64,000 nucleotides of DNA from Bacteroidia bacterium (GTDB lineage: Bacteria; Bacteroidota; Bacteroidia; AKYH767-A; OLB10): contig JAEUTH010000021.1 in assembly GCA_016788165.1 (NCBI GenBank), forward strand, positions 72,496 to 136,495, given 5' to 3'. Below, piece after piece: positions 4,083 to 48,130 of this stretch; positions within the stretch are counted from its first letter, which is position 1, and each line of letters opens with the position of its first letter. Both the position numbers and the translations under genes were made by a program. A model generated the notes under the pieces. The model had not been told where the DNA came from. It saw only the letters and a list, made by a program, of their open reading frames with translations, and did not search any database.

Positions 4083-5252
4083 CTAAAGGTTTGATTTTTT
4101 ATTTAGTAAGCCTCCGAAAATTAAAACAAAAGCTGTTAACAAAACCATTTGAATTAGCAGCGTTTTATTTATTAAAGGCAATTGACTGGTTATTGGTACA
4201 GAAAGGAAAAGTAAAATAGTGATTAAGCCACGCGGAGCTACAAATAAAACCGGTACCAAAGGTAGTTTGTAAAGATGAAGTAAAACAGCCCGTGATAAAA
4301 ATATAAGTACAACAAATGCGATAGAATAGGGCAATTCAGTTGTACTTATCAATTCATCTAAATTTAAACTAAAACCAAATAGCGTAAAAAATAAAATGCG
4401 TATTAAAAAGGTGGCTTCAATAACTAAGTCGGTAAACGAATTTACTTCGGCATTAAAATTATCGAAACGTACTTTTTTAAATATTTTAAATTTATTAAAC
4501 ATACTTGCATTGCTAAAAACCAAACCTAAAATCAGTATGTAAATTAAACCCGGCAAATGCAACAATTTGGTTATAGCATATACAAGTAAAATTAATGCGA
4601 GCAAAGGTACATGCTTAACATGCGTATTAATTTTATAAAGCAAAACTGCCGATGCTATGGTGCTTAGGCATGTAATTATCAGGATAAAAATTAGGTCAGA
4701 TGTAAATTTTAATCCGGCTGTTAAATTTATAATTTCAGTAGTAACAAAGAAGTTGAATAGGACAACGCCAATAATGTCGCTAAAACTACTTTCGTAAACC
4801 ACAAACTCTTTATTTATTTCGTTAAACGATTTGGCACTTGGTATAGCTATAGCACTGCTAATAATGCAAAGTGGCATCAGGTTAACTATACTATCATTAA
4901 TGGAGTAATTGAAAACATAGTAACACCAACTTACGGTAATTACTGCTAAAATTAATATAGCAAGCCATGACACCCAAAATGCTTTTTTTATTAATGGTAT
5001 TTTGGTTGCATCAATTTTAAGTTCCAACGCACCTTCGAGCACAATTAAAACCAATCCAACGGTACCTACTAAAGGTAAAATACGTGATACATCGGGTATG
5101 GCAATATTTAATAACTGAAGGCTATATTTAATTGCAAAACCAAAAGTTAATAGCAGCACCACCGATGGCACTTTAATTTTAGCCGAAAAAACATCAATCA
5201 GGTATGCAATTAAAACTACACCACATAAAATCAGTAATATGTTAGCAATCAT
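4083..5252 (-). CDS. Cation:proton antiporter (Na+/H+ exchanger, CPA family)
   Basis: ~12 predicted TM helices. The N terminus MIANILLILCGVVLIAYLIDVFSAKIKVPSVVLLLTFGFAIK is typical of sodium:proton antiporters. Confidence 0.85.
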   Translation of the reverse strand: MIANILLILCGVVLIAYLIDVFSAKIKVPSVVLLLTFGFAIKYSLQLLNIAIPDVSRILPLVGTVGLVLIVLEGALELKIDATKIPLIKKAFWVSWLAILILAVITVSWCYYVFNYSINDSIVNLMPLCIISSAIAIPSAKSFNEINKEFVVYESSFSDIIGVVLFNFFVTTEIINLTAGLKFTSDLIFILIITCLSTIASAVLLYKINTHVKHVPLLALILLVYAITKLLHLPGLIYILILGLVFSNASMFNKFKIFKKVRFDNFNAEVNSFTDLVIEATFLIRILFFTLFGFSLNLDELISTTELPYSIAFVVLIFLSRAVLLHLYKLPLVPVLFVAPRGLITILLFLSVPITSQLPLINKTLLIQMVLLTAFVLIFGGLLNKKSNL

Positions 5253-5297
5253 AATATAGTTTTAAAGTGCCGGCCAATACTATTACAGATGTTGAAA

Positions 5298-6557
5298 TTA
5301 AGTTTTTTGTTTTTTCTTTTTGGCAGCCGGAAACAATACATTATTTAAAATTAAACGAAAGCCCGGTGAATTTGGATGCAGGTTTAAATCGGTTGGCGGG
5401 TCGCCTACCATGTGTTGATAATCTTCCGGATCGTGTCCGCCATAAAATGTCCAGGTGCCTTTGCCATGTTCGCCATGTATGTATTTGGCAAAACCCCCTG
5501 ATTTGTTTTCGCCCATCACAATTACATTGCTCTTAATATAACGACTATCAAAAGCCGTTGTTTGTCCCATAAAACCAGCAATAACTTGTTCGTGGTTTTG
5601 GCATAACATGGTGGGTACCGGATCCCATTTAGCCGAAAACTCAAAAAGTGTAAACACATCGTTATCGCGCGATACGCCACGTTGTTGCGGGTTAACATCA
5701 ATGTTGCTAAACTCATACTCAACCGGATTGGTACTCAGTTTAAAGTTTTCGAAAGCAAAAGTTTTTGCAAAATCTAATTTGTTGTTGTAGTTGATGGTGG
5801 TTCCATCGCCATCATAAATTTTATCGGCAATGTCAAGGTCTTGCGCTGCCAATGCAATGTCATACGAGTCGGTGCCTGAGCACATAGTAAATAAAAAGCC
5901 TCCACCAATTGTAAACTCTTCAATTTTTTTTGCAACACCCAATTTAAGCTGTGATACTTTGCTAAAGCCTAATTTTTTTGCCATAGCTTCGTTAGTGCGC
6001 ACTTGTTCCTGATACCAAGGAGCGTTATGGTACATAGAATAAAACTTGCCGTATTGGCCTGTAAAATCTTCGTGATGGAGGTGCAGCCAATCGTACAGAG
6101 GAAGTTTACCGGTTATTATTTCCTCATCATACACTATGTCATATTTTATCTCGGCATATTTTAATACCATGGTTACGGCATCGTCCCAGGGTAATTTGTT
6201 TTTAGGCGTGTAAACTGCAATGCGTGGGGCCTTTTCTAATTTCACCACATCCATATTTACTTCTGGGTTTGCAATTTCCTGAATTATGGCATCGGCCTGG
6301 CCATCGGCAATAATGGTGTAGGATACACCGCGTACCTTACATTCGTTTTCTATGGCCGAAATTTGTTTAATCATAAAACTACCGCCACGGTAATTGAGCA
6401 ACCAGTTTATATCTACCTCTTGTGTAAGTACCCAATAAGCAATGCCGTATGCTTTAAGGTGATTTTTTTGAGATTCGTCCATAGGTATAAGTATGTACGA
6501 TGCCTGTATTTTAAAGCTAACAACAAGTAAAGCGATGATAATTTTTAAACTCTTCAT
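5298..6557 (-). CDS. Secreted conserved hypothetical protein (signal peptide; function unknown)
   Basis: N-terminal signal peptide MKSLKIIIALLVVSFKIQA, 419 aa, lysine-rich C-terminal tail. No motif I can assign confidently. Confidence 0.6.
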   Translation of the reverse strand: MKSLKIIIALLVVSFKIQASYILIPMDESQKNHLKAYGIAYWVLTQEVDINWLLNYRGGSFMIKQISAIENECKVRGVSYTIIADGQADAIIQEIANPEVNMDVVKLEKAPRIAVYTPKNKLPWDDAVTMVLKYAEIKYDIVYDEEIITGKLPLYDWLHLHHEDFTGQYGKFYSMYHNAPWYQEQVRTNEAMAKKLGFSKVSQLKLGVAKKIEEFTIGGGFLFTMCSGTDSYDIALAAQDLDIADKIYDGDGTTINYNNKLDFAKTFAFENFKLSTNPVEYEFSNIDVNPQQRGVSRDNDVFTLFEFSAKWDPVPTMLCQNHEQVIAGFMGQTTAFDSRYIKSNVIVMGENKSGGFAKYIHGEHGKGTWTFYGGHDPEDYQHMVGDPPTDLNLHPNSPGFRLILNNVLFPAAKKKKQKT

Positions 6558-11146: not shown

Positions 11147-12466
11147 TTATGATTTACCGCTAATAATAAATGTGGTACCAACACCAATAGTACTCGTTAC
11201 AGCTATGTTTAGTTGATGGTAATTGGCAATGGTTTTAACAATGGACAAACCCAAGCCATGACTATTGGCATCTTTCTGATGTAATCTGGTAAAACGATCG
11301 AATATAATGGCAATTTGCTCGGGCTCAATACCTAAACCAGTGTCGGAAATGGCAATTTCAAAATCATTATTAATTAATTTGCTGGTAATGGTTACGTTGC
11401 CTCCATGTTTATTGTATTTGAGGGCATTGATAAGCAAATTATTAAAAAGCATTTGTAACAATGAAGTATTGCTTTTTGCTAAAATAATTTGGTGTTCCAT
11501 ATCATTTATCATGGTAACTTCTTTATGTGCACAACGATCTTGCAGCTCTTCAATAATTTCGCTAATAAGGTCGTTTAAATTGGTAACCTCACTTTTGTCA
11601 AACTGTTCGTTTTCTACTTTTGATATTGTTAGCAATGCTTTAATAATTCGACTTAACCGGCTCAATATTTTTTGTGAGTCAATAAGTTTTAAGGCGGTAT
11701 CGTGATCGGTTTTTTGATCGGTGATTATATTTTCGAAACGGTTTTGTAATATCGATATGGGTGTTTGTAATTCGTGTGATACATTGGCAATAAATGCTTT
11801 TTCATGATTAAAGTCGTCTTTAATTTTAAGCATTAAGTTTTCGAAAGCCTGATCGAGATAGGTAAACTCAGCAGTAGAACTATTAACCGGATTCGATTTG
11901 AATTTTATAGGGTTATCAACTGCTTTAAGCTTGTTTAGTATTTTATTAAAAGGCAAAAGCAACATACCGATAAAGCCAAAGTCGCTTGCAATACTTATTA
12001 AAACCACCACCACCATTAACCAAATTGTAAATCGTGTAAAGGCCTTATCTAATTGTTCGATAGTGCTCAACCCTTCGCCTATATTGAGTGCATACATTTG
12101 ATTATCGTACATAAAACTGCGGTGTAGTACCCGGTGTTTTAATTCTTCTGTATCTAAAATCCAGGTTTCGATATCGATGCTATCAACGGTACTAAACGTA
12201 CTTGCATCGGTTATGGGTTCAATTTTTATAAATTCCTCTTTAAAAATTGTATGATCTGCATAGCTACAATCTTGCTCATGTTTAATATCATCTAAACCAC
12301 CTTGTTTCACCATCGACATAGCTCTGTCGGCATTGGCGCGTAAACGGTTATCAATATGACTAAACACAACCCTTTCAACAATAACCGGAAGGAGCAAACC
12401 AAATGCTGCAATAATTAATGCTTTAGAAATGGCATTATAAATAGCAAACTTTACTTTTAAGCGCAT
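11147..12466 (-). CDS. Membrane sensor histidine kinase (2 TM, HisKA + HATPase_c)
   Basis: H-box SHELQTPISIL. N/G boxes NLLINALKYNKHGG...ISDTGLGI...GLGLSIV. Two hydrophobic segments flank a periplasmic region. Confidence 0.9.
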   Translation of the reverse strand: MRLKVKFAIYNAISKALIIAAFGLLLPVIVERVVFSHIDNRLRANADRAMSMVKQGGLDDIKHEQDCSYADHTIFKEEFIKIEPITDASTFSTVDSIDIETWILDTEELKHRVLHRSFMYDNQMYALNIGEGLSTIEQLDKAFTRFTIWLMVVVVLISIASDFGFIGMLLLPFNKILNKLKAVDNPIKFKSNPVNSSTAEFTYLDQAFENLMLKIKDDFNHEKAFIANVSHELQTPISILQNRFENIITDQKTDHDTALKLIDSQKILSRLSRIIKALLTISKVENEQFDKSEVTNLNDLISEIIEELQDRCAHKEVTMINDMEHQIILAKSNTSLLQMLFNNLLINALKYNKHGGNVTITSKLINNDFEIAISDTGLGIEPEQIAIIFDRFTRLHQKDANSHGLGLSIVKTIANYHQLNIAVTSTIGVGTTFIISGKS

Positions 12467-12533: not shown

Positions 12534-12938
12534 TTATATGACATTGGTATGTTTTAAATGTGTTACCAAATCGTCAATTGAAAGTGGTTTTAAAAATAAG
12601 GCTTTTACCAAACTGCTGGCCTTAGCCCTGCTGTTATCTGTAAAATTTAGTGATGATGATACCATTACAATATGTATCTTATCAACTATTGGTTTTGGTA
12701 AGTTTTCGAATGCAGCTAAAAATTCAAAACCATCCATACCGGGCATTTGAATATCCAGTAAAATCAAATCAGGGCATGTTTGCTCATTACATGTTTTAAG
12801 GTACTCAATGGCTTCGATTGGATTAATGTATTTTAGAACAGAATGTGAAAAGCCTCGGATATTTATTAGTTTTTCGAGTAAAAATAAATCGATGCCATTG
12901 TCATCAATAAGCATTACTTGAATTCGTTTGTCCATCAT
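12534..12938 (-). CDS. Single-domain response regulator (receiver only, no output domain)
   Basis: VMLIDDN...LILLDIQMPGMDGFEF...IVMVSSS receiver motifs; 134 aa. Start overlaps the stop of the upstream REC-kinase gene. Confidence 0.85.
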   Translation of the reverse strand: MMDKRIQVMLIDDNGIDLFLLEKLINIRGFSHSVLKYINPIEAIEYLKTCNEQTCPDLILLDIQMPGMDGFEFLAAFENLPKPIVDKIHIVMVSSSLNFTDNSRAKASSLVKALFLKPLSIDDLVTHLKHTNVI

Positions 12939-14026
12939 TTTGGATTTTTATTAGGAATAAAAATATTGAATGTCGTGCCTATTTCACTGGTTGATTTAAC
13001 TTTTATAGAACCGTTAATTTTTTCTAATGCTTCTTTTACAATGAAAAGACCTATACCTGAACCTTGCTTTTTACTGGTGGTTGGTGTTCTGAAAAATAGT
13101 TGAAATATATTTTCGATATAGATTTGTGGAATACCAATACCATTGTCGCTTATTTCGATTTCTGCGCCTTGTAAATTTGTATTTACAGTAACGGTAACAC
13201 AATGCTTGGGTGTATTCGGGTTGTTATATTTAATGGCATTAGATATCAGATTATTAAGTATAACCCTTATGCGAAAATCGTCTGAAATAAAATTTGTGGT
13301 TTGATTTATGGTAACATTAAATACAACACTCGGTTCCAGATTGCTTAATGATTCTACACAGTCGCTTACTAAGATTTTAAAATCAATTACATCATTAATT
13401 TCTTCCAGGCGCGAGTTTTGATAATATTCAATAATGCGTTTGGTGTAATTATCAAGTTTTAAAATACTGCTTTCAATAACCTTAAAGTATTCTTCGGCTA
13501 CCAACATTTCAGGCTCCATTCTGGCATATTGAACTATACCTAAAACTGACATTAATGGCGAGCGTAAGTCATGCGATGCACTATAAACAAACCTGTTAAG
13601 TTCATCGTTTGTTTTCTCGAGCTGTGCATTTTTTTCGGCTAATTGTATGCGCGATCGGTATAAATCAGCACAATATTCCAGGGTTAATGTAAACTTATCC
13701 CAATCCCATGGTTTTTGTATGTATTTACTAATTTGTCCGGTATTAATGGCTTCAATTACGGTATCAATATCCGTTTGGCCAGTTATAAGCAGCCTGATAG
13801 TATTTGGATAGGTTTCGATAGTTTGTGCCAAAAACTGAATACCGGTACAACCGGGCATTCGTTGGTCGGAAATAATAATACCCATTTCATTGTTTTCAAT
13901 AATCTGCAAAGCTTCTTGGGCACTTATTGCTGTATATACTTTATACAATTTGCGGAACATTGATTTAAATGAAATCAGGTTGTTTTCCTCGTCATCAACA
14001 TAAAGTACTTTAAGTTGGTTTTCCAT
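12935..14026 (-). CDS. Receiver-fused histidine kinase (REC-HisKA-HATPase) with no sensor domain; phosphorelay intermediate
   Basis: N-terminal receiver VLYVDDEENNL...ISDQRMPGCTG...LITGQTD...KPWD, then H-box SASHDLRSPL and ATPase motifs NLISNAIKYN...DNGIGI...GSGIGL. Confidence 0.9.
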   Translation of the reverse strand: MENQLKVLYVDDEENNLISFKSMFRKLYKVYTAISAQEALQIIENNEMGIIISDQRMPGCTGIQFLAQTIETYPNTIRLLITGQTDIDTVIEAINTGQISKYIQKPWDWDKFTLTLEYCADLYRSRIQLAEKNAQLEKTNDELNRFVYSASHDLRSPLMSVLGIVQYARMEPEMLVAEEYFKVIESSILKLDNYTKRIIEYYQNSRLEEINDVIDFKILVSDCVESLSNLEPSVVFNVTINQTTNFISDDFRIRVILNNLISNAIKYNNPNTPKHCVTVTVNTNLQGAEIEISDNGIGIPQIYIENIFQLFFRTPTTSKKQGSGIGLFIVKEALEKINGSIKVKSTSEIGTTFNIFIPNKNPK

Positions 14027-14052: not shown

Positions 14053-16194
14053 TTATCTTTTTAATCGTAACGGTAAATATAACATTACTTCACTGCCTTG
14101 ATTGGGTGCCGATTCAATTTCAATCCTTCCGTGGTGGCTTTCGATAATTGAATATACAATAGACATTCCCAAACCGGTACCTTCGCCCACGTCTTTGGTT
14201 GTAAAAAAGGGTTCGAAAATTTTAGACTTCACTTTTTCATCCATCCCTACACCGGTGTCTGCTACGGTAATTTTAATAAAATCATTATCTAATATAGATG
14301 TAATGGTGAGTACATGATTTTTTTGCTGATTGTTTTTTTCGATAGCTTGTAGTGCGTTATTAAGTACATTCATAAACACCTGATTAAGTTTACCCGGGTA
14401 ACATTCGATATTGGGCAATACGTTCAGATTTTTAATAAGTGTTAGGCTTTTTGGCATTGAGTTTCGTAATAAAACCAGCGTTGATTCTATTCCTTCATTA
14501 AGGTTCGCTTCTTTAATATCACTTTCATCTAAACGAGAGAAATTTTTTAAGCCTTTTACAATTTCTGCTGTGCGTTTGGCTCCATCTTCAATGCCATTAA
14601 TTAAAATATTTATTTCATGTTTTAAGTAATCGAAATCAATTTCTTTTTTATAAGCTTCAATGTCAGTTTTAGATTGGTCAAAGTCAGCGGCATTATTTAA
14701 TGCATCGTATTTTTCAATTATCAATAAAATATCGTTTATATCCAGTTGTAATGGTCTGATGTTGGCGCTTACAAAATTAATTGGGTTGTTTATTTCATGC
14801 GCTATACCAGCAGTTAGTTGCCCTAATGATGCCATTTTTTCGGCATTAACTAATTGGGCTTGTGCATCTTTTAAATTTTTTAAAGTAATACCCAGTTCTG
14901 TATTGGCAATTTGGAGTTCTTGCGTTCGTTCGTTTACTTTTTGTTCAAGCATTAGATTCTGCTCAGAAATCAGTTTTTCCTTTTCGCGTAAAGCTGCCAT
15001 GGTTTCAGCTTGCGATTCCTCTTTTTCCTTTTTTAAAATATTAATCCGGTCGGCTAATGCAAATGAAAGCAGCACCACTTCGGCAGCCGAACCTAATGGC
15101 ATCATGTAAAGTGTATAATTATTGTAAGGTAGTATGCTAAAATCTTTTAATACATAAACCGTTACACCTATCAGGAAAACAGTCCATGCTAATAAAAAAT
15201 AGCCGGCAGGTCTAAATCCCTTTTTATAAATAAGGTAGCCAACATAAAGCATGTACAGCGATACCAGCGTTGCAATTAATTCGATTAAGATAAAACTAAC
15301 TTTAAACAGACCGAATAATGAAAATGCCGATGCGCATACGTATGCAAACATGAAAATTATAAACCCTTTATTATGGCTTGGATAAAAGAATTTTACATGC
15401 AAAAATTCACGCATAAAAACCATGCTGGCAATGCCAACTAAAGTTGGGAAAATGAATGAACTATAAACAGCCAATAATGGGATATTGGGCCATAGTACCA
15501 TAAAGGTATATCCATGAATACTTGCTTGCGTAAGCAGTACGGTGGCTAAATAAATTACATAGTATAAATATACTTTATCTTTTATTGTTACGTATAAGAA
15601 GGCATTGTAGAAAAACATTACCAGCATTATACCGATGTATATGCCAACGGCTAAATTTCTTTTTTTGTTTGATTCGCTAATCCGATCCGGAGTACCAATA
15701 AATATGGGTATTTGGATGTTTTCCCGGGCACTTACTTGTAGCAGTATGGTAGTTATTTTATGCGAAGGTAACTGCAAGTTGAAGATATAATCCGGATCGC
15801 GTATTACCCTGTGGTTAAAACTATTATACTCGCCTGAGTGTGCTTCAGAAAAAATGGTGTCATCATTAATCTGATAGCAACTAATTTTATCTAAACCCGG
15901 ATGTGAAACCTGTAACAAAAAATCACCTACGTTGGTTTGATTGGAAATTTTTAACTTAAGCCAGAAAACAGAATTGCTTATGCCGAAGTTGGGTACATCG
16001 GTGGTAATTCTGTTAAAGTTATTAAGTTGTTTTACTTCATTAATTGTTAGTTTTTGAGTTTTATCTTCGTAGTAAACAACTTGGTTGCTAACACTTATTT
16101 TGTAATCGCTGCTAACTATAGGAATTATTTGGGCCCGGGTTATACCGGCCAACAGCAGCAAACTTATTAGTGTAAATTGTTTAATTAAAAACAC
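14053..16194 (-). CDS. 7TMR-DISM sensor histidine kinase (7TMR-DISMED2 extracellular domain, 7TM, coiled coil, HisKA, HATPase)
   Basis: Signal peptide plus beta-rich extracytoplasmic domain (FWLKLKISNQT...), seven consecutive TM helices, H-box AHEINNPINFV, N/G boxes MNVLNNALQA...DTGVGM...GTGLGMSIV. Confidence 0.9.
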   Translation of the reverse strand: MFLIKQFTLISLLLLAGITRAQIIPIVSSDYKISVSNQVVYYEDKTQKLTINEVKQLNNFNRITTDVPNFGISNSVFWLKLKISNQTNVGDFLLQVSHPGLDKISCYQINDDTIFSEAHSGEYNSFNHRVIRDPDYIFNLQLPSHKITTILLQVSARENIQIPIFIGTPDRISESNKKRNLAVGIYIGIMLVMFFYNAFLYVTIKDKVYLYYVIYLATVLLTQASIHGYTFMVLWPNIPLLAVYSSFIFPTLVGIASMVFMREFLHVKFFYPSHNKGFIIFMFAYVCASAFSLFGLFKVSFILIELIATLVSLYMLYVGYLIYKKGFRPAGYFLLAWTVFLIGVTVYVLKDFSILPYNNYTLYMMPLGSAAEVVLLSFALADRINILKKEKEESQAETMAALREKEKLISEQNLMLEQKVNERTQELQIANTELGITLKNLKDAQAQLVNAEKMASLGQLTAGIAHEINNPINFVSANIRPLQLDINDILLIIEKYDALNNAADFDQSKTDIEAYKKEIDFDYLKHEINILINGIEDGAKRTAEIVKGLKNFSRLDESDIKEANLNEGIESTLVLLRNSMPKSLTLIKNLNVLPNIECYPGKLNQVFMNVLNNALQAIEKNNQQKNHVLTITSILDNDFIKITVADTGVGMDEKVKSKIFEPFFTTKDVGEGTGLGMSIVYSIIESHHGRIEIESAPNQGSEVMLYLPLRLKR

Positions 16195-16196
16195 AG

Positions 16197-16880
16197 TTAA
16201 TTGGGCAAAAACAGTTGGTAATTTATTTCAATAGAGCCCTTAGCGCCCATTTCAGTATATTTTTGATTCGGGCTGTTTCGCAAGCTTAACATGCGTTCGC
16301 GGTCATAGGGTTGTGAGGTGCCCAAATCTTTGGCATTTAAAATTCCTAATACCCGCGCAATATAGTTTTCGTTTGGATAAACAAATTGACCGTTGTCGCC
16401 TAACGAATCATCAACCACAAAACCAACACGCCTGAACATAGGCATGGTATAATCGGCACAAATGCCCATTAATGTTTTGCATTTAATTTGATTAACAATA
16501 CTGATGCCTGCACGGGTTAGTAATAAACTTAAACCTTTGCCAGCAACTACTTTGGCATTCCAAAGAGCGCAAAGTTCGCCTACACCTGTATTGATATATC
16601 CATTAACAATCTGATGTATGTTGGGGTCCATTTTTCCAATTGCTTTTTCAACGGGTAGCATATTAATGCCATCGGCAATTTGTACTCTTATGCCGCCCAC
16701 CAAAACGCCATCATCGCGTTCGGCAACAATGCCGTAAACGCAATTCCATGTCATCCATTCTTGGTTATTGGAAGTTATATTTGTTATGCCATAGTCTTTT
16801 AAAACGTTTACATGGCCTTCTAAATATTTAGCACTGGTTTCAGTATCGGTGGGGGCATGAAAAATTCTGAATCTGTACAT
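16197..16880 (-). CDS. GNAT-fold acyltransferase-like protein (function unresolved; acetyltransferase versus N-acyl-amino-acid / autoinducer-synthase-like)
   Basis: Acyl-CoA-binding-like motif LWNAKVVAGKGLSLLL. Size (227 aa) and secondary-structure pattern fit GNAT. Start lies 1 nt after the upstream gene stop. Confidence 0.5.
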   Translation of the reverse strand: MYRFRIFHAPTDTETSAKYLEGHVNVLKDYGITNITSNNQEWMTWNCVYGIVAERDDGVLVGGIRVQIADGINMLPVEKAIGKMDPNIHQIVNGYINTGVGELCALWNAKVVAGKGLSLLLTRAGISIVNQIKCKTLMGICADYTMPMFRRVGFVVDDSLGDNGQFVYPNENYIARVLGILNAKDLGTSQPYDRERMLSLRNSPNQKYTEMGAKGSIEINYQLFLPN

Positions 16881-16881
16881 T

Positions 16882-19131
16882 TTAAATCATAGTAAAACTG
16901 TTTTCTAAAGGTTTTCGTAGTGCAATAGTTGTAGGTGTTTGTGCATACATAACTCTAAACAAAAATGTATCTCTTAATGCAGGAAGAGACTCAAATATAT
17001 GCTCAAATTTAATTTGTTGTTTGTTTAGTTCGGCAATTTCGTTTTCGGAAAAGTGATGTATGCCTTGCAGTTTATTAAAATAAAATACCGGTGCACTAAT
17101 GGGTTGCAGGTGTAAACCTTGTGCGATAGCTGCCAGCCAAAAGCGTTGCACGCAAGCACCTGCATCAAGTACATTTAAATTTTTATCAACACTTAGCAGT
17201 GCTATTGCTGATGCACTTTTTATAGCATTAGATGTAATTTTTTTTAGTGCATCACCGCCTTTCCATTCGCTAACTTTTTCGATAACGGCCGGGTCGGAAG
17301 CTACTTTGAGGCCCGTAAAATCTATTTGGCTAAGTTCTAAAGTAGCTATATCTAATCCATCGCATGTTTTTTTTGCTTGTACGGTATCCCATCTAATTTC
17401 TTTATTAAAAAATTCGTCATGCCCATAAGGATTTAAAAACCTGATTTTTTCAACCGAAGCAACAATATCAGCCAGTGCAAAAATACTATCCTTATCATGT
17501 TTCCAACGTATGGTTGCAGGTTTGGCAACAATATCTAAATTGGTGGTTATGGTTGCATTAATGGGATGCCCGTTGCCGTGTTTGCGATTGGTGCAGCGTA
17601 CTTTAATTGCATTAAACAAAATTGAGTTGCCTGATTCTTTTGTTTTTGAAAAAGTTAATGCTGCTAAACAAAACGGATGTGATAAATGTTTAATTTCAAC
17701 GGCATAACCATCCATACCAGCTGTAAGTGATATATTTTCAATAGCAGCCCCCAAAGCCAGATGCGCTAAGTTGCCATCGGTATCGCTCCAGCAATAAGAC
17801 AGTGTGGCATTGTGTATTACAAATAGTACATCGTTTTTAAATACCCAATGCCATGGTTGGTTATTACCGGCTGACGGAGCTTTAATTGCAAATTGCAACC
17901 AACTTTCAATTCGGTTACCTATAACATCTTTACCTTTTATTTGATAATTAAGTGCAAAGTTTATTGCATCTTCCAATTTAAAAGTAGGGTGCTTTTTAAA
18001 TGCATTATCAGGTTTGGTTTCGGGTTGGTTCCCAATAATATTTTCAACATCAACATAATACCGGCCCGAGCTGTTAAACTGTCCCAATAAAACCCTTCTT
18101 GCAACATCGGCAGTTATGCCGCCACCCATTGTAACTGCACTGGCAAGCTGTGGCCATGTATTTATGCTTTGTTCAATTTCAATCATAGATGCTTTAAGTC
18201 TGACACTTGACGTATCAATACCTAAAACATCCATCATATAAGGTATTTTATCTTCCGTTGTTTTTAGTTGTTTTAGTTTTTCTATATTCAAATGTTCAAC
18301 CAGACCATGTAAAATGGGGCGCTCAGGTTCTAAATCAAATCGTTCAACATCAACCATACACTTATCGCTTGCTTCCATAAGTACGGGTATGCCATGTTTA
18401 CGCGCGGCATATCGGCTAATAATTTTTATATCAAAACCATCCGACTCTTCAATCAATAAGTCCATTTTACCGCCATTATAAAAAAATGCTTCTAAATTGT
18501 TTTCAGTAATTCCTTCAGGATAACATGTGATATTTATGTAAGGATCTATTTCGGCAATTTCGCGTGCAACGCTATATACTTTTGGTAAACCAATATTATG
18601 TATGCCGGTTCGTATGCGGTTTAAATTATTAAGTTCTAATGTGTCGAAATCGGCTAAATGTATATGGTTACTTATACGCTCCATAGCTATGGTAACCGCT
18701 ACCGATTGACCTACTGATAAGCCGATAATACCTATCTTTTTTTTCTGAAGGATAAGCTGTTCTTCCGGTGTAATTTTATATTGATTGCGGCTGGTGCGTA
18801 CTTTAATAAACTCTGCTTCGGGCAAGGTTCTTACCAAACGTTTACTCCAGGGATAATAAATCCACATACCATAATTATTCATAGTAAATGGATGGATGTA
18901 AGCTTCGGCTTTTTGCTTTAAAATAGCATCTGCAAACTTTTGCGAAGGATTACAGGTTTTTATAAATTCTTTTAATTGTTCAAACAAAGTATCAAACTTT
19001 TCAACTTGATTCTGTGTTGTAATTTGTTCAATTTCTTTTTCGTCAGATGCACAGCTAAATATTATTGGTTTGTAATTGTTAAAAGCACTTTGCATGTTTA
19101 TGTCAAGGTGATTGGAAATGTGTAAACTCAT
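16882..19131 (-). CDS. Rv1355c-family protein: E1-like (ThiF/MoeB-type) adenylation domain fused to a double nitroreductase (SagB-type, FMN) domain
   Basis: E1 Rossmann start KKIGIIGLSVGQSVAVTIAM plus ADFDTLELNNLNRI (ThiF D.D.VE.SNLNRQ motif) at about aa 130-175. Nitroreductase signatures APSAGNNQPWHWVF (about aa 418) and a second half VRCTNRKHG (about aa 510). Confidence 0.8.
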   Translation of the reverse strand: MSLHISNHLDINMQSAFNNYKPIIFSCASDEKEIEQITTQNQVEKFDTLFEQLKEFIKTCNPSQKFADAILKQKAEAYIHPFTMNNYGMWIYYPWSKRLVRTLPEAEFIKVRTSRNQYKITPEEQLILQKKKIGIIGLSVGQSVAVTIAMERISNHIHLADFDTLELNNLNRIRTGIHNIGLPKVYSVAREIAEIDPYINITCYPEGITENNLEAFFYNGGKMDLLIEESDGFDIKIISRYAARKHGIPVLMEASDKCMVDVERFDLEPERPILHGLVEHLNIEKLKQLKTTEDKIPYMMDVLGIDTSSVRLKASMIEIEQSINTWPQLASAVTMGGGITADVARRVLLGQFNSSGRYYVDVENIIGNQPETKPDNAFKKHPTFKLEDAINFALNYQIKGKDVIGNRIESWLQFAIKAPSAGNNQPWHWVFKNDVLFVIHNATLSYCWSDTDGNLAHLALGAAIENISLTAGMDGYAVEIKHLSHPFCLAALTFSKTKESGNSILFNAIKVRCTNRKHGNGHPINATITTNLDIVAKPATIRWKHDKDSIFALADIVASVEKIRFLNPYGHDEFFNKEIRWDTVQAKKTCDGLDIATLELSQIDFTGLKVASDPAVIEKVSEWKGGDALKKITSNAIKSASAIALLSVDKNLNVLDAGACVQRFWLAAIAQGLHLQPISAPVFYFNKLQGIHHFSENEIAELNKQQIKFEHIFESLPALRDTFLFRVMYAQTPTTIALRKPLENSFTMI

Positions 19132-19338
19132 GAATTAAAAATAGGGGAATGAGCAGGCAAGTTTAGTTTAATTTTATAATTTTGTAGCAACTTATCATTT
19201 TGATAGTTTGGTGTTATTTTGATTCTCAATTTTAATTTTTTTCAGTTTCTTTTTGATTGCCTGCAGGGTTTGATTATTTGTTCTGTTAGTTTTCAATTTG
19301 CAAATGTTACATAAGCTGTAATTAATACACTTTTTAGT

Positions 19339-19806
19339 ATGGAAGATTTGTCGATAATTAAGGTTCTTTATGTTGATGACGAAGCGCATAATTTAAATGC
19401 GTTTAAAGCAAGTTTTAGGCGTGTATTTACTGTGTTTATTGCACTTTCGGCCGATGAAGCCAAGCAAATAATGTCCGAAAATGAGATACACGTTTTAATT
19501 ACCGATCAACGTATGCCTGGTACACCGGGTACTGAATTATTAGCCTATGCCGTAAAAGATAAGCCCGACCAGATACGGATTTTACTTACCGGTTTTAGCG
19601 ATATGGATGCCTTACAAGATGCCGTAAATCGCGGCCACATTTATCGCTACTTACAAAAACCCTGGGATGATGAAATTTTGCGTCAAACCATTATTGAAGC
19701 CTACCAGATTTATGCCTTAAAACTGGAACGCGAAGCATTAACTCAAAAGCTACAACAAAACAACGAGCAACTTGAATTTTATTTAAGACATAAATTATTG
19801 TCTTAG
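19339..19806 (+). CDS. Single-domain response regulator (receiver only), divergent from the operon above; its receiver is paralogous to that of the REC-kinase
   Basis: VLYVDDEAHNL...ITDQRMPGTPG...LLTGFSD...YLQKPWD aligns almost motif-for-motif with the receiver of the 12935..14026 protein. Confidence 0.85.
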   Translation: MEDLSIIKVLYVDDEAHNLNAFKASFRRVFTVFIALSADEAKQIMSENEIHVLITDQRMPGTPGTELLAYAVKDKPDQIRILLTGFSDMDALQDAVNRGHIYRYLQKPWDDEILRQTIIEAYQIYALKLEREALTQKLQQNNEQLEFYLRHKLLS

Positions 19807-22139: not shown

Positions 22140-23051
22140 ATGTTAAAGGCCATAGTAAAACCATTTTATAAAACAGCACACGATTTATTGTATGCAACTG
22201 CATACTACAATCCGCTTTTTAAAAAACAACATCATAATAAAAAAGTGACAAAAGGTTTTATTGGTGATGAACATTTACAAAATCCGATTTTGGATGATGA
22301 ACTGTTTAAAGAATTGCAAGAGCAAAAAATTGCAACTTCAACTTATCAAATTTCTGTTGATGGATATAATGCCTATATGAAGCAAGCCGGTTATCCGGTG
22401 ACCTATTACGGAGGCGGAAAAGACTTAAAGCAAAATTTTATTCAAAAAACTTTAGAGCACTATGTATCACAAACATTATTTACACTTACTGTAAATGATG
22501 TTTTTTTAGATGTTGCAGCTTGCAATTCGCCATTTTCGCAAATTATACAAAACCAAACCGGAGCTAAAGTATATCAGCAGGATTTAATTTATAAACCCGG
22601 CATAAACGGCAAGTACATTGGTGGTTATGGCCATCAAACCAACCTGCCGGCAAATAGCATTAAGGCTATTACCCTGCACTGTTCGTTAGAACATTTTGAG
22701 CACGATACCGACATTCAGTTTTTTAAAGAGGTAAACCGGATTTTAATACTGGGTGGCAAAGCCATTATACTTCCATTTTATTTTGCACATACTTACACCA
22801 TACACATTGACCCAGCATTTAATTTGTTACGAAACCACCACCCAATAATTGATAACGAGGCCGATTTGCGCTATTGTAACTGGTATCAATTTCATAGCAG
22901 GCATTATGATATTAATCAATTACAAAAACGAATTGTAGCAAGCTTACCTCAATGCAAAGTAAAACTACATCGCGTTAGCAATTTTACAGCAATACAACCC
23001 GCTGGTTATTTACGATGGATACTAGAAATAACAAAGGAAGCAACTAATTAA
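22140..23051 (+). CDS. Hypothetical protein with degenerate class I SAM-methyltransferase-like motifs; co-transcribed between purL and mtgA
   Basis: VFLDVAACNSPF (motif I-like) and ITLHCSLEHFEHD...VNRILILGGKAIIL (motif II/III-like). 8-nt gap after purL, 1-nt gap before mtgA. Confidence 0.5.
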   Translation: MLKAIVKPFYKTAHDLLYATAYYNPLFKKQHHNKKVTKGFIGDEHLQNPILDDELFKELQEQKIATSTYQISVDGYNAYMKQAGYPVTYYGGGKDLKQNFIQKTLEHYVSQTLFTLTVNDVFLDVAACNSPFSQIIQNQTGAKVYQQDLIYKPGINGKYIGGYGHQTNLPANSIKAITLHCSLEHFEHDTDIQFFKEVNRILILGGKAIILPFYFAHTYTIHIDPAFNLLRNHHPIIDNEADLRYCNWYQFHSRHYDINQLQKRIVASLPQCKVKLHRVSNFTAIQPAGYLRWILEITKEATN

Positions 23052-29051: not shown

Positions 29052-29083
29052 AAAAAGTGCATTGTAAAAAATACTTTTGTTGC

Positions 29084-30385
29084 ATGGTGCAAATATTATG
29101 GGCCTTACCCATTGTTATTTTTATAAATTATATAATCGGCAAATCCGATTTCTTTTACCATCGCAGAGTACACCCTTTGTTGTTTCGATTTGCATTTATG
29201 GTAAAAGTAACAGCCGGATTTATTCTCACTTTAATTTATACGCACTACTATACCGATAGAAGTACAGCAGACATATTTAAGTATTTCGATGACAGTAAAA
29301 TAATGTATGATTTATGCTGGGTTGATTTTGAATTGTTTTTAAAAATGCTTTTCGGTTTTAATGATGTAGCACTTGCAGCTTATTATAACCAAATGATTGC
29401 CTGGTATGATTCCGATTTTATTTACAACGACAACCGACTAATGATTAAGCTCAATTGCTTAATGCGTTTCGTTTCATTTGGCAACTACTATATTCATGTA
29501 GTGCTTATCTGCTTCATTGTTTTTTATGGCTTAACATGTTTGTTTAAACTGTTTGCTTCTGAGTTAAAATCAAAATTTTCAGGCATTTATTTTTGCGCCT
29601 TTTTTATACCATCTGTTGTTTTTTGGACCAGTGCTGTGTTAAAGGATGCAGCAATACTGTTTGCGCTATCTGTTTTCCTATTTAATTATAACAAAATACT
29701 TATTAATGCAGCTTCAGTTAAGAGTTATATTTTGCTATTGCTGGCAATACTTCTTTTATTAACTATTAAGGTATATGTTTTTGTACTGGTGTTACCCGGT
29801 TTGATAATAGTTACCTTATTGAAACGCAAATTTTTAATTAATTATAATCAGTTTGCTGTTTGGGTAGTAACGTATTTTATATACGCAGTTGTAATTTTTT
29901 CGCTTAAATATTTTACACCTTACAATATAGTTGAGCAAATTGCAATCAAGCAACATCAATTTTTAAAACTTGCCTACCAGGTTCATAGTGGCAGTATTTT
30001 AAAAGCGTACGAACTTAGCACCTCTGTTAGCTTAATTAAGGCAATGCCGTTGGCATTTTGTAATACATTTTTACAACCTTATGTAGGTAATTTTAAATCG
30101 GCTGTTATTACATTAGCCTCAATCGAAAATGCCTTGTGTCTTTTAGCTTTAATTTTTGTTGCTTTTCATAGCAGGTTAAAGAATGCATTTATTACACCGT
30201 GGTTCTTCTTTTCTTTGTTTTTTGTTTTATCGCTTTATTCATTAATAGGTCTAATTGTTCCGGTTGCAGGCGCTTTGGTTAGATACAAAACTATTGCTAT
30301 GCCTTTTTTTGCATTCATATTATTAATTATTGCCGACACCGAAAAAATTAAAGCAACTTTCAGAAAATTAAAAATCCTAAACTGA
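29084..30385 (+). CDS. Polytopic integral membrane protein, function unknown (tandem paralog 1)
   Basis: At least 10 predicted TM helices. Start moved to ATG 29084 because the ORF-track start at 29057 lies inside the upstream terminator hairpin. Shares conserved blocks with the next gene (NDNxxMIxLxxLxxF...Y.xH.V; C-terminal TxPVxGxLVRYKxxxMP). Confidence 0.7.
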   Translation: MVQILWALPIVIFINYIIGKSDFFYHRRVHPLLFRFAFMVKVTAGFILTLIYTHYYTDRSTADIFKYFDDSKIMYDLCWVDFELFLKMLFGFNDVALAAYYNQMIAWYDSDFIYNDNRLMIKLNCLMRFVSFGNYYIHVVLICFIVFYGLTCLFKLFASELKSKFSGIYFCAFFIPSVVFWTSAVLKDAAILFALSVFLFNYNKILINAASVKSYILLLLAILLLLTIKVYVFVLVLPGLIIVTLLKRKFLINYNQFAVWVVTYFIYAVVIFSLKYFTPYNIVEQIAIKQHQFLKLAYQVHSGSILKAYELSTSVSLIKAMPLAFCNTFLQPYVGNFKSAVITLASIENALCLLALIFVAFHSRLKNAFITPWFFFSLFFVLSLYSLIGLIVPVAGALVRYKTIAMPFFAFILLIIADTEKIKATFRKLKILN

Positions 30386-31641
30386 TGTGGGTGCAATGCC
30401 TCGTTTTCTTCCTCCATTTTGCTTTAGCACTCGTGCTTATTTATAAAATGCACTTTTTTAAATGCGGTTATGCATGGCAGTGGTTGGTTTTTTTTTTCAT
30501 AACTAAAGTAGGGGTTGGGTTGCTTCAATATTTTTTGATGCTGCAATTTAGTTTTGGGGGTGATGCTATATCGTTTTTTAATACGGGTTTATACTTAAAC
30601 CAGATTGCATTCGAAAACCCATGGCTATTTATAAAGGTAATGTCAGGCTTAGGTTTTGATGTGGAAACTGTATTTACACCTCAAATGTATTGGACTAATG
30701 CAGATATACTTTTTAACGATAATCAAACCATGATACGATTGCATGCATTACTCGCTTTTTTTTCGATGTGTTCATATATAGTGCACACAGTTTGGTTTTC
30801 GTTCTTAAGCTTAATAGGTTTTGTTGCAATGATTAAAACCATGCAATTGTTTTTTGGTAAAAAACTGTTGCATACGTTGCTATTAACCTGTATTCCTTCG
30901 ACATTTTTTTGGTGTGCTGGTTGCTCAAAAGAAGCTGTATTGATCGCTTTTTTAGGTTTGTTTTTATGGGCATTAGCAAATGCAATTAAGCAGTTACGTA
31001 TTACCTTCACATTGCTTGGTAGTTGTGCTTTATTGTTTCTTATCAAATCTTATATAGCACTGGCCTTAATTCCGGCATTACTTAGCTGGTGCATTGCTTT
31101 TTATTTGAAAAAAAACAATTGGCTGACCTTTGCAGTGGTATACGCATTTACAATAATATTTCTTTTTACTATGCCGGCTTTTGATTTTATGGGGTACTTA
31201 ATTTTTAAACAACATAGTTTTCAGTATTTAGCTGAGTGGTCAGGTGCAGGAAGTGTATTGCCACTTTTAGAAATTAAATCGCCTTGGCTAATGGTACCCA
31301 ACTATTTACAAGCTTTAGAACACATTTTTTTTAGACCCCATATTTTCGAAATCAAAAATATGCAATGGCTTTTTGCTGCCATCGAAAATTATGTACTGCT
31401 GTTGCTGTTAGTGGTATTTGTTTTAGGTAATCAGAAATTTAAAGGTCAATCGGCAACATGCTTTTTATTGTTTTTTACTGTCAGTTTGTTTGTTTTAATA
31501 GGCATAACCACACCAGTATTAGGCAGTTTGGTTAGATATAAAGCACCACTAATGCCACTATTTTTTATAGCGTTAGTATGGCAATTTAATTATGTTGTTT
31601 TGAAACAGCGGCTGAACTATTTGTTTAGTTTAATTAAATAA
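30385..31641 (+). CDS. Polytopic integral membrane protein, function unknown (tandem paralog 2); start overlaps the stop of paralog 1 by 1 nt
   Basis: ctgATGtgg: TGA stop of the upstream gene at 30383-30385, ATG at 30385-30387. Same block order as paralog 1. Confidence 0.7.
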   Translation: MWVQCLVFFLHFALALVLIYKMHFFKCGYAWQWLVFFFITKVGVGLLQYFLMLQFSFGGDAISFFNTGLYLNQIAFENPWLFIKVMSGLGFDVETVFTPQMYWTNADILFNDNQTMIRLHALLAFFSMCSYIVHTVWFSFLSLIGFVAMIKTMQLFFGKKLLHTLLLTCIPSTFFWCAGCSKEAVLIAFLGLFLWALANAIKQLRITFTLLGSCALLFLIKSYIALALIPALLSWCIAFYLKKNNWLTFAVVYAFTIIFLFTMPAFDFMGYLIFKQHSFQYLAEWSGAGSVLPLLEIKSPWLMVPNYLQALEHIFFRPHIFEIKNMQWLFAAIENYVLLLLLVVFVLGNQKFKGQSATCFLLFFTVSLFVLIGITTPVLGSLVRYKAPLMPLFFIALVWQFNYVVLKQRLNYLFSLIK

Positions 31642-39951: not shown

Positions 39952-40362
39952 TCAGGGTGTAAATACCTGACAAATTTGATGATACACTTCATCAATGGGC
40001 TCCCACAATTCGATTTTATTATTTTCTAAATCGAGTATGTGCATAAATTTGCCGTATTCAAAGGTTTCGATTTCGTCTAATACGGTTACGCCTTCATTAA
40101 TAAGTTTTTCGCGCAATGCTACTAAATCATCAACCCTAAAGTTTATCATAAATGGTTTGGTTGATGGCGCAAAATAACTGCTGTCTTTTTTAAAAACACT
40201 CCATTGTGTGTGCCCAATTTTTTTGCTGTCTGTAGTTAGCCATTGAAAGGTTGTGCCATAGGTATCGGTATTAAAACCCAAATGTTTTTGATACCAATTT
40301 TTTGCATTTTCAACATCATTACATTTTATAAAAACGCCTCCAATACCTGTAACTTTTGCCAT
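39952..40362 (-). CDS. VOC-family protein (glyoxalase/bleomycin-resistance fold)
   Basis: 136 aa; GIGGVFIKCNDVENAKNWYQKHLGF; paired beta-alpha-beta-beta-beta module. Confidence 0.8.
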   Translation of the reverse strand: MAKVTGIGGVFIKCNDVENAKNWYQKHLGFNTDTYGTTFQWLTTDSKKIGHTQWSVFKKDSSYFAPSTKPFMINFRVDDLVALREKLINEGVTVLDEIETFEYGKFMHILDLENNKIELWEPIDEVYHQICQVFTP

Positions 40363-48065: not shown

Positions 48066-48130
48066 GCGAGGGCGATTTTATGGAAGGGTAATTTTAGTAA
48101 AAATTTATCCGGCACCAAGATGTAAATTTT

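Follow-up and report, generated by a model that had tools for sequence, protein, structure and literature searches.

A Bacteroidota TrzS/OxzB-type oxazolone synthetase candidate encoded with an acyltransferase at the head of a sensor-kinase cassette

The main finding of this study is that the 749-aa open reading frame flagged by an earlier note in a 64,000-nucleotide stretch of Bacteroidota DNA (hereafter the window) probably encodes a TrzS/OxzB-type oxazolone synthetase, which would act in a two-enzyme pathway with the 227-aa acyltransferase encoded downstream. We put the probability of this reading at about 80%, judging the likeness to the characterised actinobacterial enzymes by HMM, primer-peptide and fold comparisons. 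As a Bacteroidota member of the TrzS/OxzB enzymes, the flagged gene is not an orphan, and since the chemistry of the family was solved between 2021 and 2025, the puzzle of an orphan E1-SagB fusion without YcaO is resolved. OxzB was reported in 2021 to convert N-acyl-tyrosine to an oxazolone (bioRxiv 10.1101/2020.06.11.147165). The remark in the earlier note that MoeY (Rv1355c) lacks a demonstrated function has been out of date since December 2025, when the protein proved to be the N-acyl tryptazolone synthase TrzS. This enzyme joins a ThiF-like ATP-dependent cyclase to an FMN oxidase and turns N-acyl-tryptophan into an oxazolone (JBC 2025; PMC12856293). Thus, the enzyme chemistry and the acylated-metabolite route have already been published, and the new part appears to be the linkage of the Bacteroidota pair to a sensor kinase, which seems to be unreported so far. 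The arrangement of the genes suggests that the pair and the kinase may form a signal synthase and sensor cassette.

The features of the locus are collected in Table 1. Both motif sets quoted in the earlier note were found in the regions given there, and the 749-aa ORF is confirmed to be real; public gene calls start it either at the same codon or at Met13, giving 737 aa. Residues 130-173 read KKIGIIGLSVGQ...ADFDTLELNNLNRI, residues 418-431 read APSAGNNQPWHWVF, and VRCTNRKHG lies at residues 511-519. Because these motifs are invariant or nearly so among 32 homologues, they are far beyond chance. In the ThiF/E1-like domain, GLSVGQS, LADFDxLExxNxNRIR and K184 are invariant columns of the same alignment, GLSVGQS being a family-invariant glycine-rich loop in place of the canonical GxGxxG, and the nearest solved structure is AclA (PDB 9egb). 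The C-terminal half carries APSAGNNQPW (418-427) and RxTNR (512-516), matches the Pfam Nitroreductase family at residues 624-681, and finds its best match in both structure and sequence in Acg (the M. smegmatis homologue, PDB 2ymv). Membership of the Rv1355c family was borne out by a full-length match to NCBIfam NF005901 (707.5 bits against a cutoff of 476), in which residues 15-745 align with profile positions 6-717 of 722. The fusion of an E1-like protein to a double nitroreductase therefore holds as far as it concerns an E1/ThiF domain joined to a pseudo-dimeric nitroreductase-fold flavoprotein, whereas the label SagB-type does not, the flavin domain being of the FDO/Acg type instead.

Table 1. 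Coordinates of the features at the locus, numbered along the window
Feature	Position	Strand	Basis
TrzS/OxzB-type bifunctional oxazolone synthetase candidate, 749 aa	16882..19131	-	N-terminal domain + ThiF-like cyclase + FMN oxidase (FDO)
ThiF/E1-like adenylating (cyclase) domain, aa 119-351	18079..18777	-	Pfam PF00899, 5.8e-18
FDO domain, nitroreductase superfamily, aa about 400-749	16885..17934	-	Acg-like pseudo-dimer
Asp231 codon, TrzS(Msmeg) Asp217 equivalent	18439..18441	-	primer-peptide match
Arg564 codon, TrzS(Msmeg) Arg540 equivalent	17440..17442	-	primer-peptide match
Gln676 codon, TrzS(Msmeg) Gln651 equivalent	17104..17106	-	primer-peptide match
FeeM/AHL-synthase-like GNAT-fold acyltransferase, 227 aa, presumed N-acyl amino acid synthase	16197..16880	-	structure prediction
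7TMR-DISM sensor histidine kinase (DISMED2 periplasmic domain, 7 TM helices, HisKA, HATPase)	14053..16194	-	PF07696, PF07695, PF02518
Hybrid receiver + histidine kinase (REC-HisKA-HATPase)	12935..14026	-	Pfam
Single-domain response regulator (REC only)	12534..12938	-	Pfam PF00072; 4-nt overlap with upstream gene
PorY-like histidine kinase	11147..12466	-	NF052314, 1.5e-71, below cutoff
Divergent single-domain response regulator, 155 aa (REC + short tail)	19339..19806	+	PF00072
Divergent intergenic region, 207 bp, presumed promoter region	19132..19338	.	gene spacing

The catalytic residues of TrzS could be placed on the window protein by decoding the published mutagenic primers, which give the local TrzS(Msmeg) sequence around three mutated residues. 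Local alignment of the Ala-substituted peptides gave ambiguous placement, whereas ungapped scanning with the native residue restored gave unique, collinear matches at monotonic offsets of +14, +24 and +25. For Asp231 the comparison is DVVVEEC[D]SLDA with DLLIEES[D231]GFDI (score 31; next best 17), for Arg564 RRTDRI[R]YLTP with ASVEKI[R564]FLNP (25; next best 14) and for Gln676 QQHGVSV[Q]PVSP with IAQGLHL[Q676]PISA (21; next best 16). D231 and R564 are invariant among the 32 Bacteroidota homologues, and the family position of Gln676 holds Gln or His. In TrzS(Msmeg), D217A abolishes all cyclase activity, R540A no longer retains FMN and builds up the cyclised saturated intermediate, and a phenotype has likewise been demonstrated for Q651A (PMC12856293).

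The pathway that can be proposed from these correspondences follows the order seen with TrzS in vitro, where ATP-dependent cyclisation precedes O2-dependent desaturation (PMC12856293). In the ThiF domain Asp231 would lie at the phosphate/Mg site, and attack by the amide oxygen would close the 5(4H)-oxazolone ring; YcaO would not be needed because the ThiF domain itself is the cyclodehydratase. In the third step, by homology, the Acg-like FMN domain with Arg564 and Gln676 would desaturate the C-alpha/C-beta bond, passing the electrons to O2. This would give a conjugated N-acyl oxazolone, from which hydrolysis may yield an N-acyl dehydro-amino acid. The acyl chain length and the amino acid used are not predictable from the sequence. 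Two suggestions of the earlier note agree with the published family mechanism, namely that oxidation can proceed without a canonical cyclodehydratase, the ThiF domain itself cyclising (PMC12856293), and that the adjacent GNAT protein supplies the substrate as an acylated metabolite (PMC12856293; bioRxiv 10.1101/2020.06.11.147165).

That neighbour does appear to be a GNAT-fold acyltransferase, an identity that rests on structure prediction because sequence searches gave no named family. The 227-aa protein has no Pfam match even at E<=10, FeeM and Autoind_synth included, and none in NCBIfam; its family profile recovers from the PDB sequences a chance match alone (E 1.7). Of the family, only distant members reach the FeeM-type model PF21926, at 2.4e-4 and with a score of 21.3 bits where the cutoff is 27. 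FeeM is the nearest structure to the predicted model, followed by AHL synthases; the model shows the FeeM/LuxI variant of the GNAT fold, at only 9-12% identity to FeeM (PDB 2g0b) and the LuxI-type LasI, TofI and RpaI. An invariant AGxGxS loop (113-118) falls at the strand-helix junction that forms the GNAT pantetheine-pyrophosphate site, and about 40 residues at the C-terminus, folded as a hairpin and a helix, are extra relative to FeeM/LuxI-type synthases. TyzA has likewise been reported as nearest to FeeM and an AHL synthase, BjaI. The family comprises 589 clusters at 50% identity and was previously unannotated. The TrzS-like gene and the acyltransferase gene are adjacent in 80 of 80 Bacteroidota genomes, in two gene orders, and one metagenomic protein has the N-terminal region and ThiF domain fused directly to the acyltransferase.

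Comparison with characterised systems places the window pair close to TrzS/TrzA (Rv1355c/Rv1356c of M. tuberculosis and the homologues of M. smegmatis and R. jostii RHA1). The synthetases belong to the same NCBIfam family and share the N-terminal region, the ThiF domain, the Acg-like FDO and the equivalents of D217, R540 and Q651, and in both operons a FeeM/AHL-synthase-like acyltransferase gene is adjacent (PMC12856293). Signalling genes adjoin both, c-di-GMP turnover genes flanking trzAS in M. tuberculosis (PMC12856293) and kinase genes lying at the window locus. However, TrzS/TrzA are from Actinomycetota and the window pair is from Bacteroidota; the acyltransferase gene is upstream in trzAS and oxzAB but downstream in the window; the window acyltransferase, unlike TrzA, belongs to a compact family without a Pfam match; and the window pair, unlike trzAS, is co-transcribed with a 7TMR-DISM kinase phosphorelay. 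OxzB/OxzA of Pseudoalteromonas rubra, the tyrazolone/phenazolone synthetase, has the same combination of a ThiF-nitroreductase di-domain protein and an N-acyltransferase (bioRxiv 10.1101/2020.06.11.147165), and makes its oxazolone from an N-acyl amino acid in an ATP-dependent reaction with no YcaO, as is predicted for the window pair. It differs in that OxzB falls in FDO subcluster A8 and Rv1355c in A4 (14,445 sequences), the window protein matching the Rv1355c model, and in that oxzA precedes oxzB and kinase linkage is not reported for oxzAB. An acyltransferase, a ThiF cyclase and an FDO desaturase are likewise combined in TyzA/TyzB/TyzC of M. tuberculosis (PMC10404671) and in the NAS/ThiF/nitroreductase clusters for stieleriacines, thalassotalic and kyonggic acids (PMC12479983), where ThiF and FDO are separate proteins, in contrast to their fusion in the window. 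In Planctomycetota and some Proteobacteria the pathways lead to N-acyl dehydrotyrosines and not to isolated oxazolones (PMC12479983). Acg (Rv2032) resembles the C-terminal half of the window protein in its monomeric pseudo-dimeric nitroreductase fold, but it is a stand-alone FDO-B of the dormancy regulon with neither a ThiF domain nor an acyltransferase partner.

The TrzS-like and acyltransferase genes head an operon that continues into the 7TMR-DISM kinase, the hybrid receiver-kinase and the receiver, with spacings from the TrzS-like gene onward of 1 nt (between its stop codon and the acyltransferase start), 2 nt, 26 nt and a 4-nt overlap; the 7TMR-DISM kinase has an alternative start at 16152 giving 699 aa. 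The divergent region is the sole sizeable non-coding gap of the cassette, and the REC domain of the regulator beyond it is of the NosR-family type (NF053512, 2.5e-44, profile positions 1-139 only). The 7TMR-DISM kinase follows the biosynthetic pair directly in all 70 testable genome loci, the hybrid kinase comes next in 62/69, the REC-only regulator is present in 47/62, and a divergent receiver lies within 1.5 kb in 57/73. When the search was reversed and started from the kinase sensor domain, an acyltransferase or TrzS-like gene was found in 58 of 59 loci and both in 55, counting metagenome loci with enough upstream DNA. The linkage is kept through the two gene orders and one rearrangement (L164), and is seen in culturable genera including Pedobacter, Mucilaginibacter, Daejeonella and Parapedobacter. 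Three loci have a different tailoring enzyme where the TrzS-like gene would stand, a FAD_binding_4 oxidase at L161 and L114 and a methyltransferase at L097, while the acyltransferase, kinase and divergent receiver are retained. Because the pair opens an operon running on into kinases and a receiver, lipid production and the phosphorelay are probably functionally coupled, in one direction or the other.

That a membrane sensor kinase is almost always co-transcribed with the pair hints at a signalling role for the product, and we tentatively consider that the Bacteroidota cassette could be a chemical signalling system, in which the product of a swappable tailoring enzyme would be sensed by the co-transcribed 7-TM kinase. 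Its parts would be the divergent receiver, the acyltransferase, the tailoring enzyme (usually TrzS-like), the 7TMR-DISM kinase, the hybrid kinase and the receiver. Regarding the product, it is possible, without being the outcome on which we would wager, that the tailored N-acyl amino acid, here an oxazolone, is a diffusible or membrane-resident signal, with the 7TMR-DISM kinase as its receptor at the top of a phosphorelay that runs via the hybrid kinase and the single-domain receivers. Such an explanation extends that of an oxazolone synthetase at the system level and is not exclusive of it. It accords with kinase linkage in both directions (70/70 forward and 58/59 reverse) that outlasts the two gene orders and the L164 rearrangement, with tailoring-enzyme swaps that look like signal diversification round a constant synthase-receptor core, and with the fold that the acyltransferase shares with FeeM and AHL synthases. 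In addition, divergence of the sensor domain follows that of the FDO (r = 0.76) and of the acyltransferase (0.70) more closely than does divergence of the kinase domain (0.47 and 0.57); this mirror-tree style correlation is not taken as decisive, since regions that evolve fast correlate best among themselves in any case, and shared fast evolutionary rates could explain that between sensor and synthase. The authors of the TrzS paper have independently proposed a signalling role (PMC12856293). On the other hand, the support is purely genomic, the cassette has no DNA-binding output domain, and tryptazolones in actinobacteria are mostly cell-associated (PMC12856293).

Adjacent genes for an autoinducer synthase and a membrane histidine-kinase receptor are familiar from LuxM/LuxN and CqsA/CqsS in Vibrio and RpfF/RpfC/RpfG in Xanthomonas. 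The window locus resembles these in having a gene for a small-lipid synthase beside one for a polytopic membrane sensor kinase with a phosphorelay, but the synthase, ligand and sensor-domain families are all distinct and the likeness is one of genes alone. Moreover, the usual prediction for a DISMED2 periplasmic domain is carbohydrate binding, which counts against a lipid signal as the ligand of the kinase.

A second explanation, somewhat doubtful in our judgement, is that the pathway makes a protective, antimicrobial or pigment lipid under regulation and that the phosphorelay senses an unrelated external cue through the periplasmic domain. The phosphorelay would then control the production or use of the oxazolone, and the lipid would be a stress protectant, an antibiotic or a membrane component. 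Oxazolone production in proteobacteria is induced by sub-inhibitory antibiotics, the tyz locus has been tied to oxidative-stress resistance, N-acyl tyrosine derivatives of Stieleria are antimicrobial, and specialised metabolites are commonly co-transcribed with regulators, all of which fit. However, mere operon regulators are rarely linked so nearly absolutely, and in both directions, across the orders of a phylum, and neither Pfam nor NCBIfam detects in the cassette a DNA-binding or transcription-factor output domain through which such control would be exerted. The kinase genes also sit downstream in the same operon, so the kinases are made together with the enzymes and not upstream of them.

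The remaining two readings concern the enzyme itself. TOMM-like peptide maturation without YcaO was the frame of the earlier note, and we regard it as very improbable; it would have the E1-like domain docking or adenylating a peptide of ribosomal origin, and azoline oxidation left to a dehydrogenase of the SagB type. TOMM/RiPP pathways do use ThiF-like proteins together with nitroreductase-fold ones (PMC12596934), and the same two superfamilies, E1/ThiF-like and nitroreductase-fold flavoprotein, there build and oxidise a five-membered heterocycle, but TOMM machinery acts on a peptide with YcaO, in contrast to ThiF-domain ATP-dependent cyclisation of a small N-acyl amino acid. The reading is contradicted by the Acg/FDO type of the flavin domain, by a conserved neighbour that is an acyltransferase and neither a peptide nor a protease, and by the lack of TOMM models, YcaO or a conserved peptide ORF. 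Neither of the profiles proposed earlier, TIGR03605 (SagB-type dehydrogenase) and TIGR03693 (ocin-ThiF-like docking protein), nor any other TOMM model is among the 18 NCBIfam matches at E<=0.01. No YcaO (PF02624) was found among the 40 window ORFs scanned with Pfam, which included all 31 of at least 300 aa and, among those of 100-300 aa, only ones at the locus, so the absence of YcaO claimed for the window holds at this sensitivity; nor was one found in the 10-kb flanks of the homologous loci listed with Pfam families. The operon contains no Cys/Ser/Thr-rich precursor-peptide gene, its intergenic gaps being at most 67 nt, and the only small ORF (64 aa, 19195..19389) was rejected as a precursor, being Lys/Asn-rich and not conserved. 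Taken as a whole, the earlier interpretation is partly supported. Finally, a molybdopterin/thiamin sulfur-carrier adenylyltransferase (after the older "MoeY"/MoeB-like annotation), or an Acg-like non-catalytic flavoprotein, is barely credible: weak matches to the ThiF and MoeB equivalog models and the JGI annotation "molybdopterin/thiamine biosynthesis adenylyltransferase" point that way, but the adenylyltransferase is contradicted by ThiF, MoeB and TcdA scores far under their cutoffs (e.g. 46 vs 266 and 61.6 vs 159 bits) and by missing carrier partners, with no MoaD/ThiS-like or rhodanese protein in the cassette by Pfam or NCBIfam, and the substrate of the characterised family member is a small molecule.

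The function of oxazolone lipids is named as the major unresolved question in the TrzS paper (PMC12856293), and the Bacteroidota loci offer a concrete handle on what these lipids are for. Our literature search found no report of oxazolones from Bacteroidota, and the predicted producers of oxazolones or N-acyl dehydro-amino acids are here extended to a fourth phylum. If the product is indeed a signal, this would be the first physiological role for oxazolones and a native Bacteroidota signal/receptor pair comparable to the AHL or CAI-1 systems. The near-obligatory two-way linkage, the culturable genera and the natural tailoring-enzyme variants make that hypothesis directly testable. The results also correct the misleading annotations "molybdopterin/thiamine adenylyltransferase", "tRNA t6A dehydratase" and "hypothetical protein".

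Some further observations concern the regulatory side of the locus. A scan for sigma-70 promoters and terminators gave counts under the shuffled expectation, with a model that does not apply to Bacteroidota promoters, and an Rfam search of the window returned no match. The PorY-like kinase gene was rejected as a part of the cassette; it is present at the same position only in the closest relative (L001/L002), all matches elsewhere were cross-hits to the hybrid kinase's kinase domain, and it is therefore taken as a lineage-specific addition to the operon. The receiver domains of the cassette resemble those of c-di-GMP phosphodiesterase regulators.

We report here a predicted oxazolone (N-acyl amino acid) pathway that is tied to a 7-TM sensor kinase phosphorelay and widespread in Bacteroidota, an association that seems to be new, whereas its enzyme, judged by sequence, appears to be a new phylum-level member, from Bacteroidota, of a family with known chemistry. 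All the motifs quoted in the earlier note are found in the window protein, KKIGIIGLSVGQ...ADFDTLELNNLNRI at aa 130-173, APSAGNNQPWHWVF at aa 418-431 and VRCTNRKHG at aa 511-519. Its description there as a ThiF and nitroreductase fusion of the Rv1355c family is borne out by Pfam matches to ThiF (aa 119-351, 5.8e-18) and Nitroreductase (aa 624-681), and by a full-length match (aa 15-745) to the NCBIfam model NF005901, "Rv1355c family protein", at 707.5 bits, the curated cutoff being 476 bits. An alignment of 32 homologues with 43-67% identity reveals that GLSVGQS, LADFDxLExxNxNRIR, K184, EExDGxDIK, APSxGNxQPW and RxTNR vary little or not at all; this is a genuine feature, maintained by selection. 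GLSVGQS, invariant in all 32, is the nucleotide-binding loop of the ThiF domain (aa 137-143), for which the MoeB/ThiF canonical form is GxGxxG. The C-terminal half matches the Acg/Rv3131 FMN oxidoreductase subfamily NF047509 (NCBIfam, 6.9e-33) instead of the proposed SagB type, and the TOMM models TIGR03605 and TIGR03693 are absent among the NCBIfam matches at E<=0.01. This half resembles M. smegmatis Acg, whose structure 2ymv is matched by the family profile at 7.5e-20.

The premise that Rv1355c/MoeY lacks a demonstrated function is outdated. In Pseudoalteromonas rubra, OxzB (a ThiF-nitroreductase) and OxzA (an N-acyltransferase) make tyrazolones and phenazolones from N-acyl amino acids in an ATP-dependent route (De Rond et al., bioRxiv 10.1101/2020.06.11.147165). 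Rv1355c has been assigned to FDO-A4, a subcluster of 14,445 sequences in which ThiF is fused to an FMN oxidase (FDO); the two are also fused in the window protein but unfused in the TyzA/TyzB/TyzC pathway of M. tuberculosis (Grigg et al. 2023, PMC10404671). Rv1356c/Rv1355c are now known as TrzA/TrzS: TrzA N-acylates tryptophan, and TrzS performs ATP-driven cyclisation of the product and then O2 desaturation to N-acyl tryptazolone (Kleetz et al., J Biol Chem, December 2025, PMC12856293). In TrzS, D217A abolishes all activity, R540A loses FMN and builds up the cyclised saturated intermediate, and Q651A is impaired (PMC12856293). The local sequence around these residues was decoded from the mutagenic primers in the supplement of that paper, and each peptide was scanned ungapped along the entire window protein, comparing best and next-best scores. 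DVVVEEC[D217]SLDA matches DLLIEES[D231]GFDI (31; next best 17), RRTDRI[R540]YLTP matches ASVEKI[R564]FLNP (25; 14) and QQHGVSV[Q651]PVSP matches IAQGLHL[Q676]PISA (21; 16). The three best matches are unique and their offsets collinear (+14, +24 and +25); D231 and R564 show no variation across the Bacteroidota alignment, and position 676 is Gln or His. As shown for homologues, the acyltransferase would form an N-acyl amino acid, the ThiF domain would adenylate its carboxylate, with the amide oxygen closing an oxazolone ring, and the FMN domain would desaturate the C-alpha/C-beta bond with O2. Because the ring is labile (PMC12856293), the pathway may end with the oxazolone itself or with a product of its hydrolysis.

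The adjacent 227-aa ORF returned zero matches in Pfam and NCBIfam at E<=10 and none in PDB sequences. It is highly conserved (59-87% identity, 36 sequences), and its family is compact, with 589 clusters at 50% identity in an exhaustive HMM search. Pfam FeeM (PF21926) is matched just under threshold, only by the more distant members, and the invariant loop AGxGxS (113-118) is sited where GNATs bind pantetheine pyrophosphate. In a metagenomic protein, P0369, the N-terminal and ThiF part (50% identical to window aa 47-387) is fused straight to the acyltransferase, and the FDO domain is absent. Based on fold and context, not on sequence homology to TrzA/OxzA, we conclude that this ORF is probably the N-acyl amino acid synthase partner. 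Other proteins from the representative library join the acyltransferase to a TIR domain (P0321) or leucine-rich repeats (P0304), which hints at other signalling or defence contexts.

A forward search with one genome per GTDB species found relatives in at least 566 genomes. The best 80 loci, which were analysed, are all from Bacteroidota (Pedobacter, Mucilaginibacter, Daejeonella, Parapedobacter, Flavipsychrobacter, Chitinophagaceae, Cryomorphaceae, Cytophaga) except a few evidently mislabelled MAGs. Among these, the acyltransferase adjoins the TrzS-like gene in 80/80 (62 loci with it downstream, 18 with it upstream), the 7TM kinase comes after the pair in all 70 with enough sequence, and the hybrid kinase and then the small receiver come next in 62 of 69 and 47 of 62 testable loci; the divergent receiver is present in 57 of 73 testable loci, and the PorY-like kinase is not conserved. 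In the reverse search, an alignment of the kinase sensor region was run against metagenome contigs and the 59 loci whose upstream DNA reached 3.2 kb or more were kept. The acyltransferase or TrzS-like gene lies just upstream in 58 of them (both in 55), and the remaining locus, L164, carries the pair on the other side of the kinase. Three loci (L161, L114 and L097) have another enzyme in place of the TrzS-like gene and retain the acyltransferase, divergent receiver and 7TMR-DISM kinase, suggesting that acyltransferase and kinase form a constant core while the tailoring enzyme varies. Our literature search found no report linking oxazolone genes to 7TMR-DISM kinases or to Bacteroidota; the N-acyl tyrosine producers in the stieleriacine paper belong to three other phyla only (PMC12479983).

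Features of the window and, in the last three rows, replacements of the TrzS-like gene in metagenome loci
Feature	Position	Strand	Remark
Divergent receiver	19339..19806	+	single-domain, upstream
TrzS-like ORF	16882..19131	-	749 aa
Acyltransferase	16197..16880	-	227 aa; begins 1 nt past TrzS-like stop codon
7TMR-DISM histidine kinase	14053..16194	-	downstream of pair
Receiver-kinase hybrid	12935..14026	-	downstream of pair
Small receiver	12534..12938	-	single-domain, downstream of pair
PorY-like kinase	11147..12466	-	downstream of pair
NRPS	48901..54189	-	1762 aa
ORFs beside NRPS	46402..48898	-	metallo-beta-lactamase-fold protein, two unannotated ORFs
Por_Secre_tail proteins	40362..46284; 54515..56218	-; +	three proteins
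Pfam-less ORFs	4083..6557; 29057..31641; 22140..23051; 36775..37692; 59139..60074	-; +; +; -; -	seven ORFs, 303-442 aa
L161 replacement	4271-5878		VAO-type FAD_binding_4 flavoprotein, ~500-535 aa
L114 replacement	2659-4170		VAO-type FAD_binding_4 flavoprotein, ~500-535 aa
L097 replacement	4144-4923		SAM methyltransferase

From this genomic context we infer that lipid production is coupled to the phosphorelay. The cassette lacks any transcription-factor output, which leaves room for two readings. The kinase may sense the pathway product, the two being a signal synthase and its receptor, to which we give about one chance in three; the linkage of kinase and pair in both directions and its persistence despite rearrangements, the exchanges of tailoring enzyme and an apparently AHL-synthase-like acyltransferase fold speak for it. 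Comparably probable is that the kinase senses another cue and controls a lipid with a protective or antimicrobial role. Distance matrices of the FDO domain and the acyltransferase agree better with that of the kinase sensor domain than with that of the kinase catalytic domain; rate effects could explain this. The cassette provides a testable route to the function of oxazolones. The receivers of the divergent ORF and the hybrid kinase match, at 147-152 bits, the N-terminal receiver part of NF053512, a NosR-family c-di-GMP phosphodiesterase response regulator, and both are without the phosphodiesterase domain; no output domain can be recognised in the cassette.

A TOMM-like pathway is rejected, since YcaO is absent from the 40 window ORFs scanned against Pfam (all 31 of >=300 aa included), as had been noted, and from the annotated flanks of homologous loci, the operon is tightly spaced (1, 2, 26, -4 and 67 nt), and the sole small ORF, which falls within the 207-bp divergent region, is rich in Lys and Asn and lacks conservation. 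In this family YcaO is not needed, because the ThiF domain is itself the cyclodehydratase. Of the earlier note, the observation stands, as apparently does its suggestion of an acylated metabolite from the adjacent GNAT, a small-molecule route already published for homologues, while the TOMM/SagB framing and the no-known-function premise fall.

Elsewhere in the window, seven ORFs lack a Pfam match at 1e-5 and include two adjacent pairs (389+419 and 442+418 aa). A single-module NRPS (condensation, adenylation with embedded methyltransferase, carrier and thioesterase) marks a separate small biosynthetic locus, ~30 kb from the TrzS-like gene. Three proteins, two of them large and glucose/sorbosone-dehydrogenase-like with PKD, carry a T9SS C-terminal sorting domain (Por_Secre_tail); this confirms that the host is a member of Bacteroidota and has type IX secretion.
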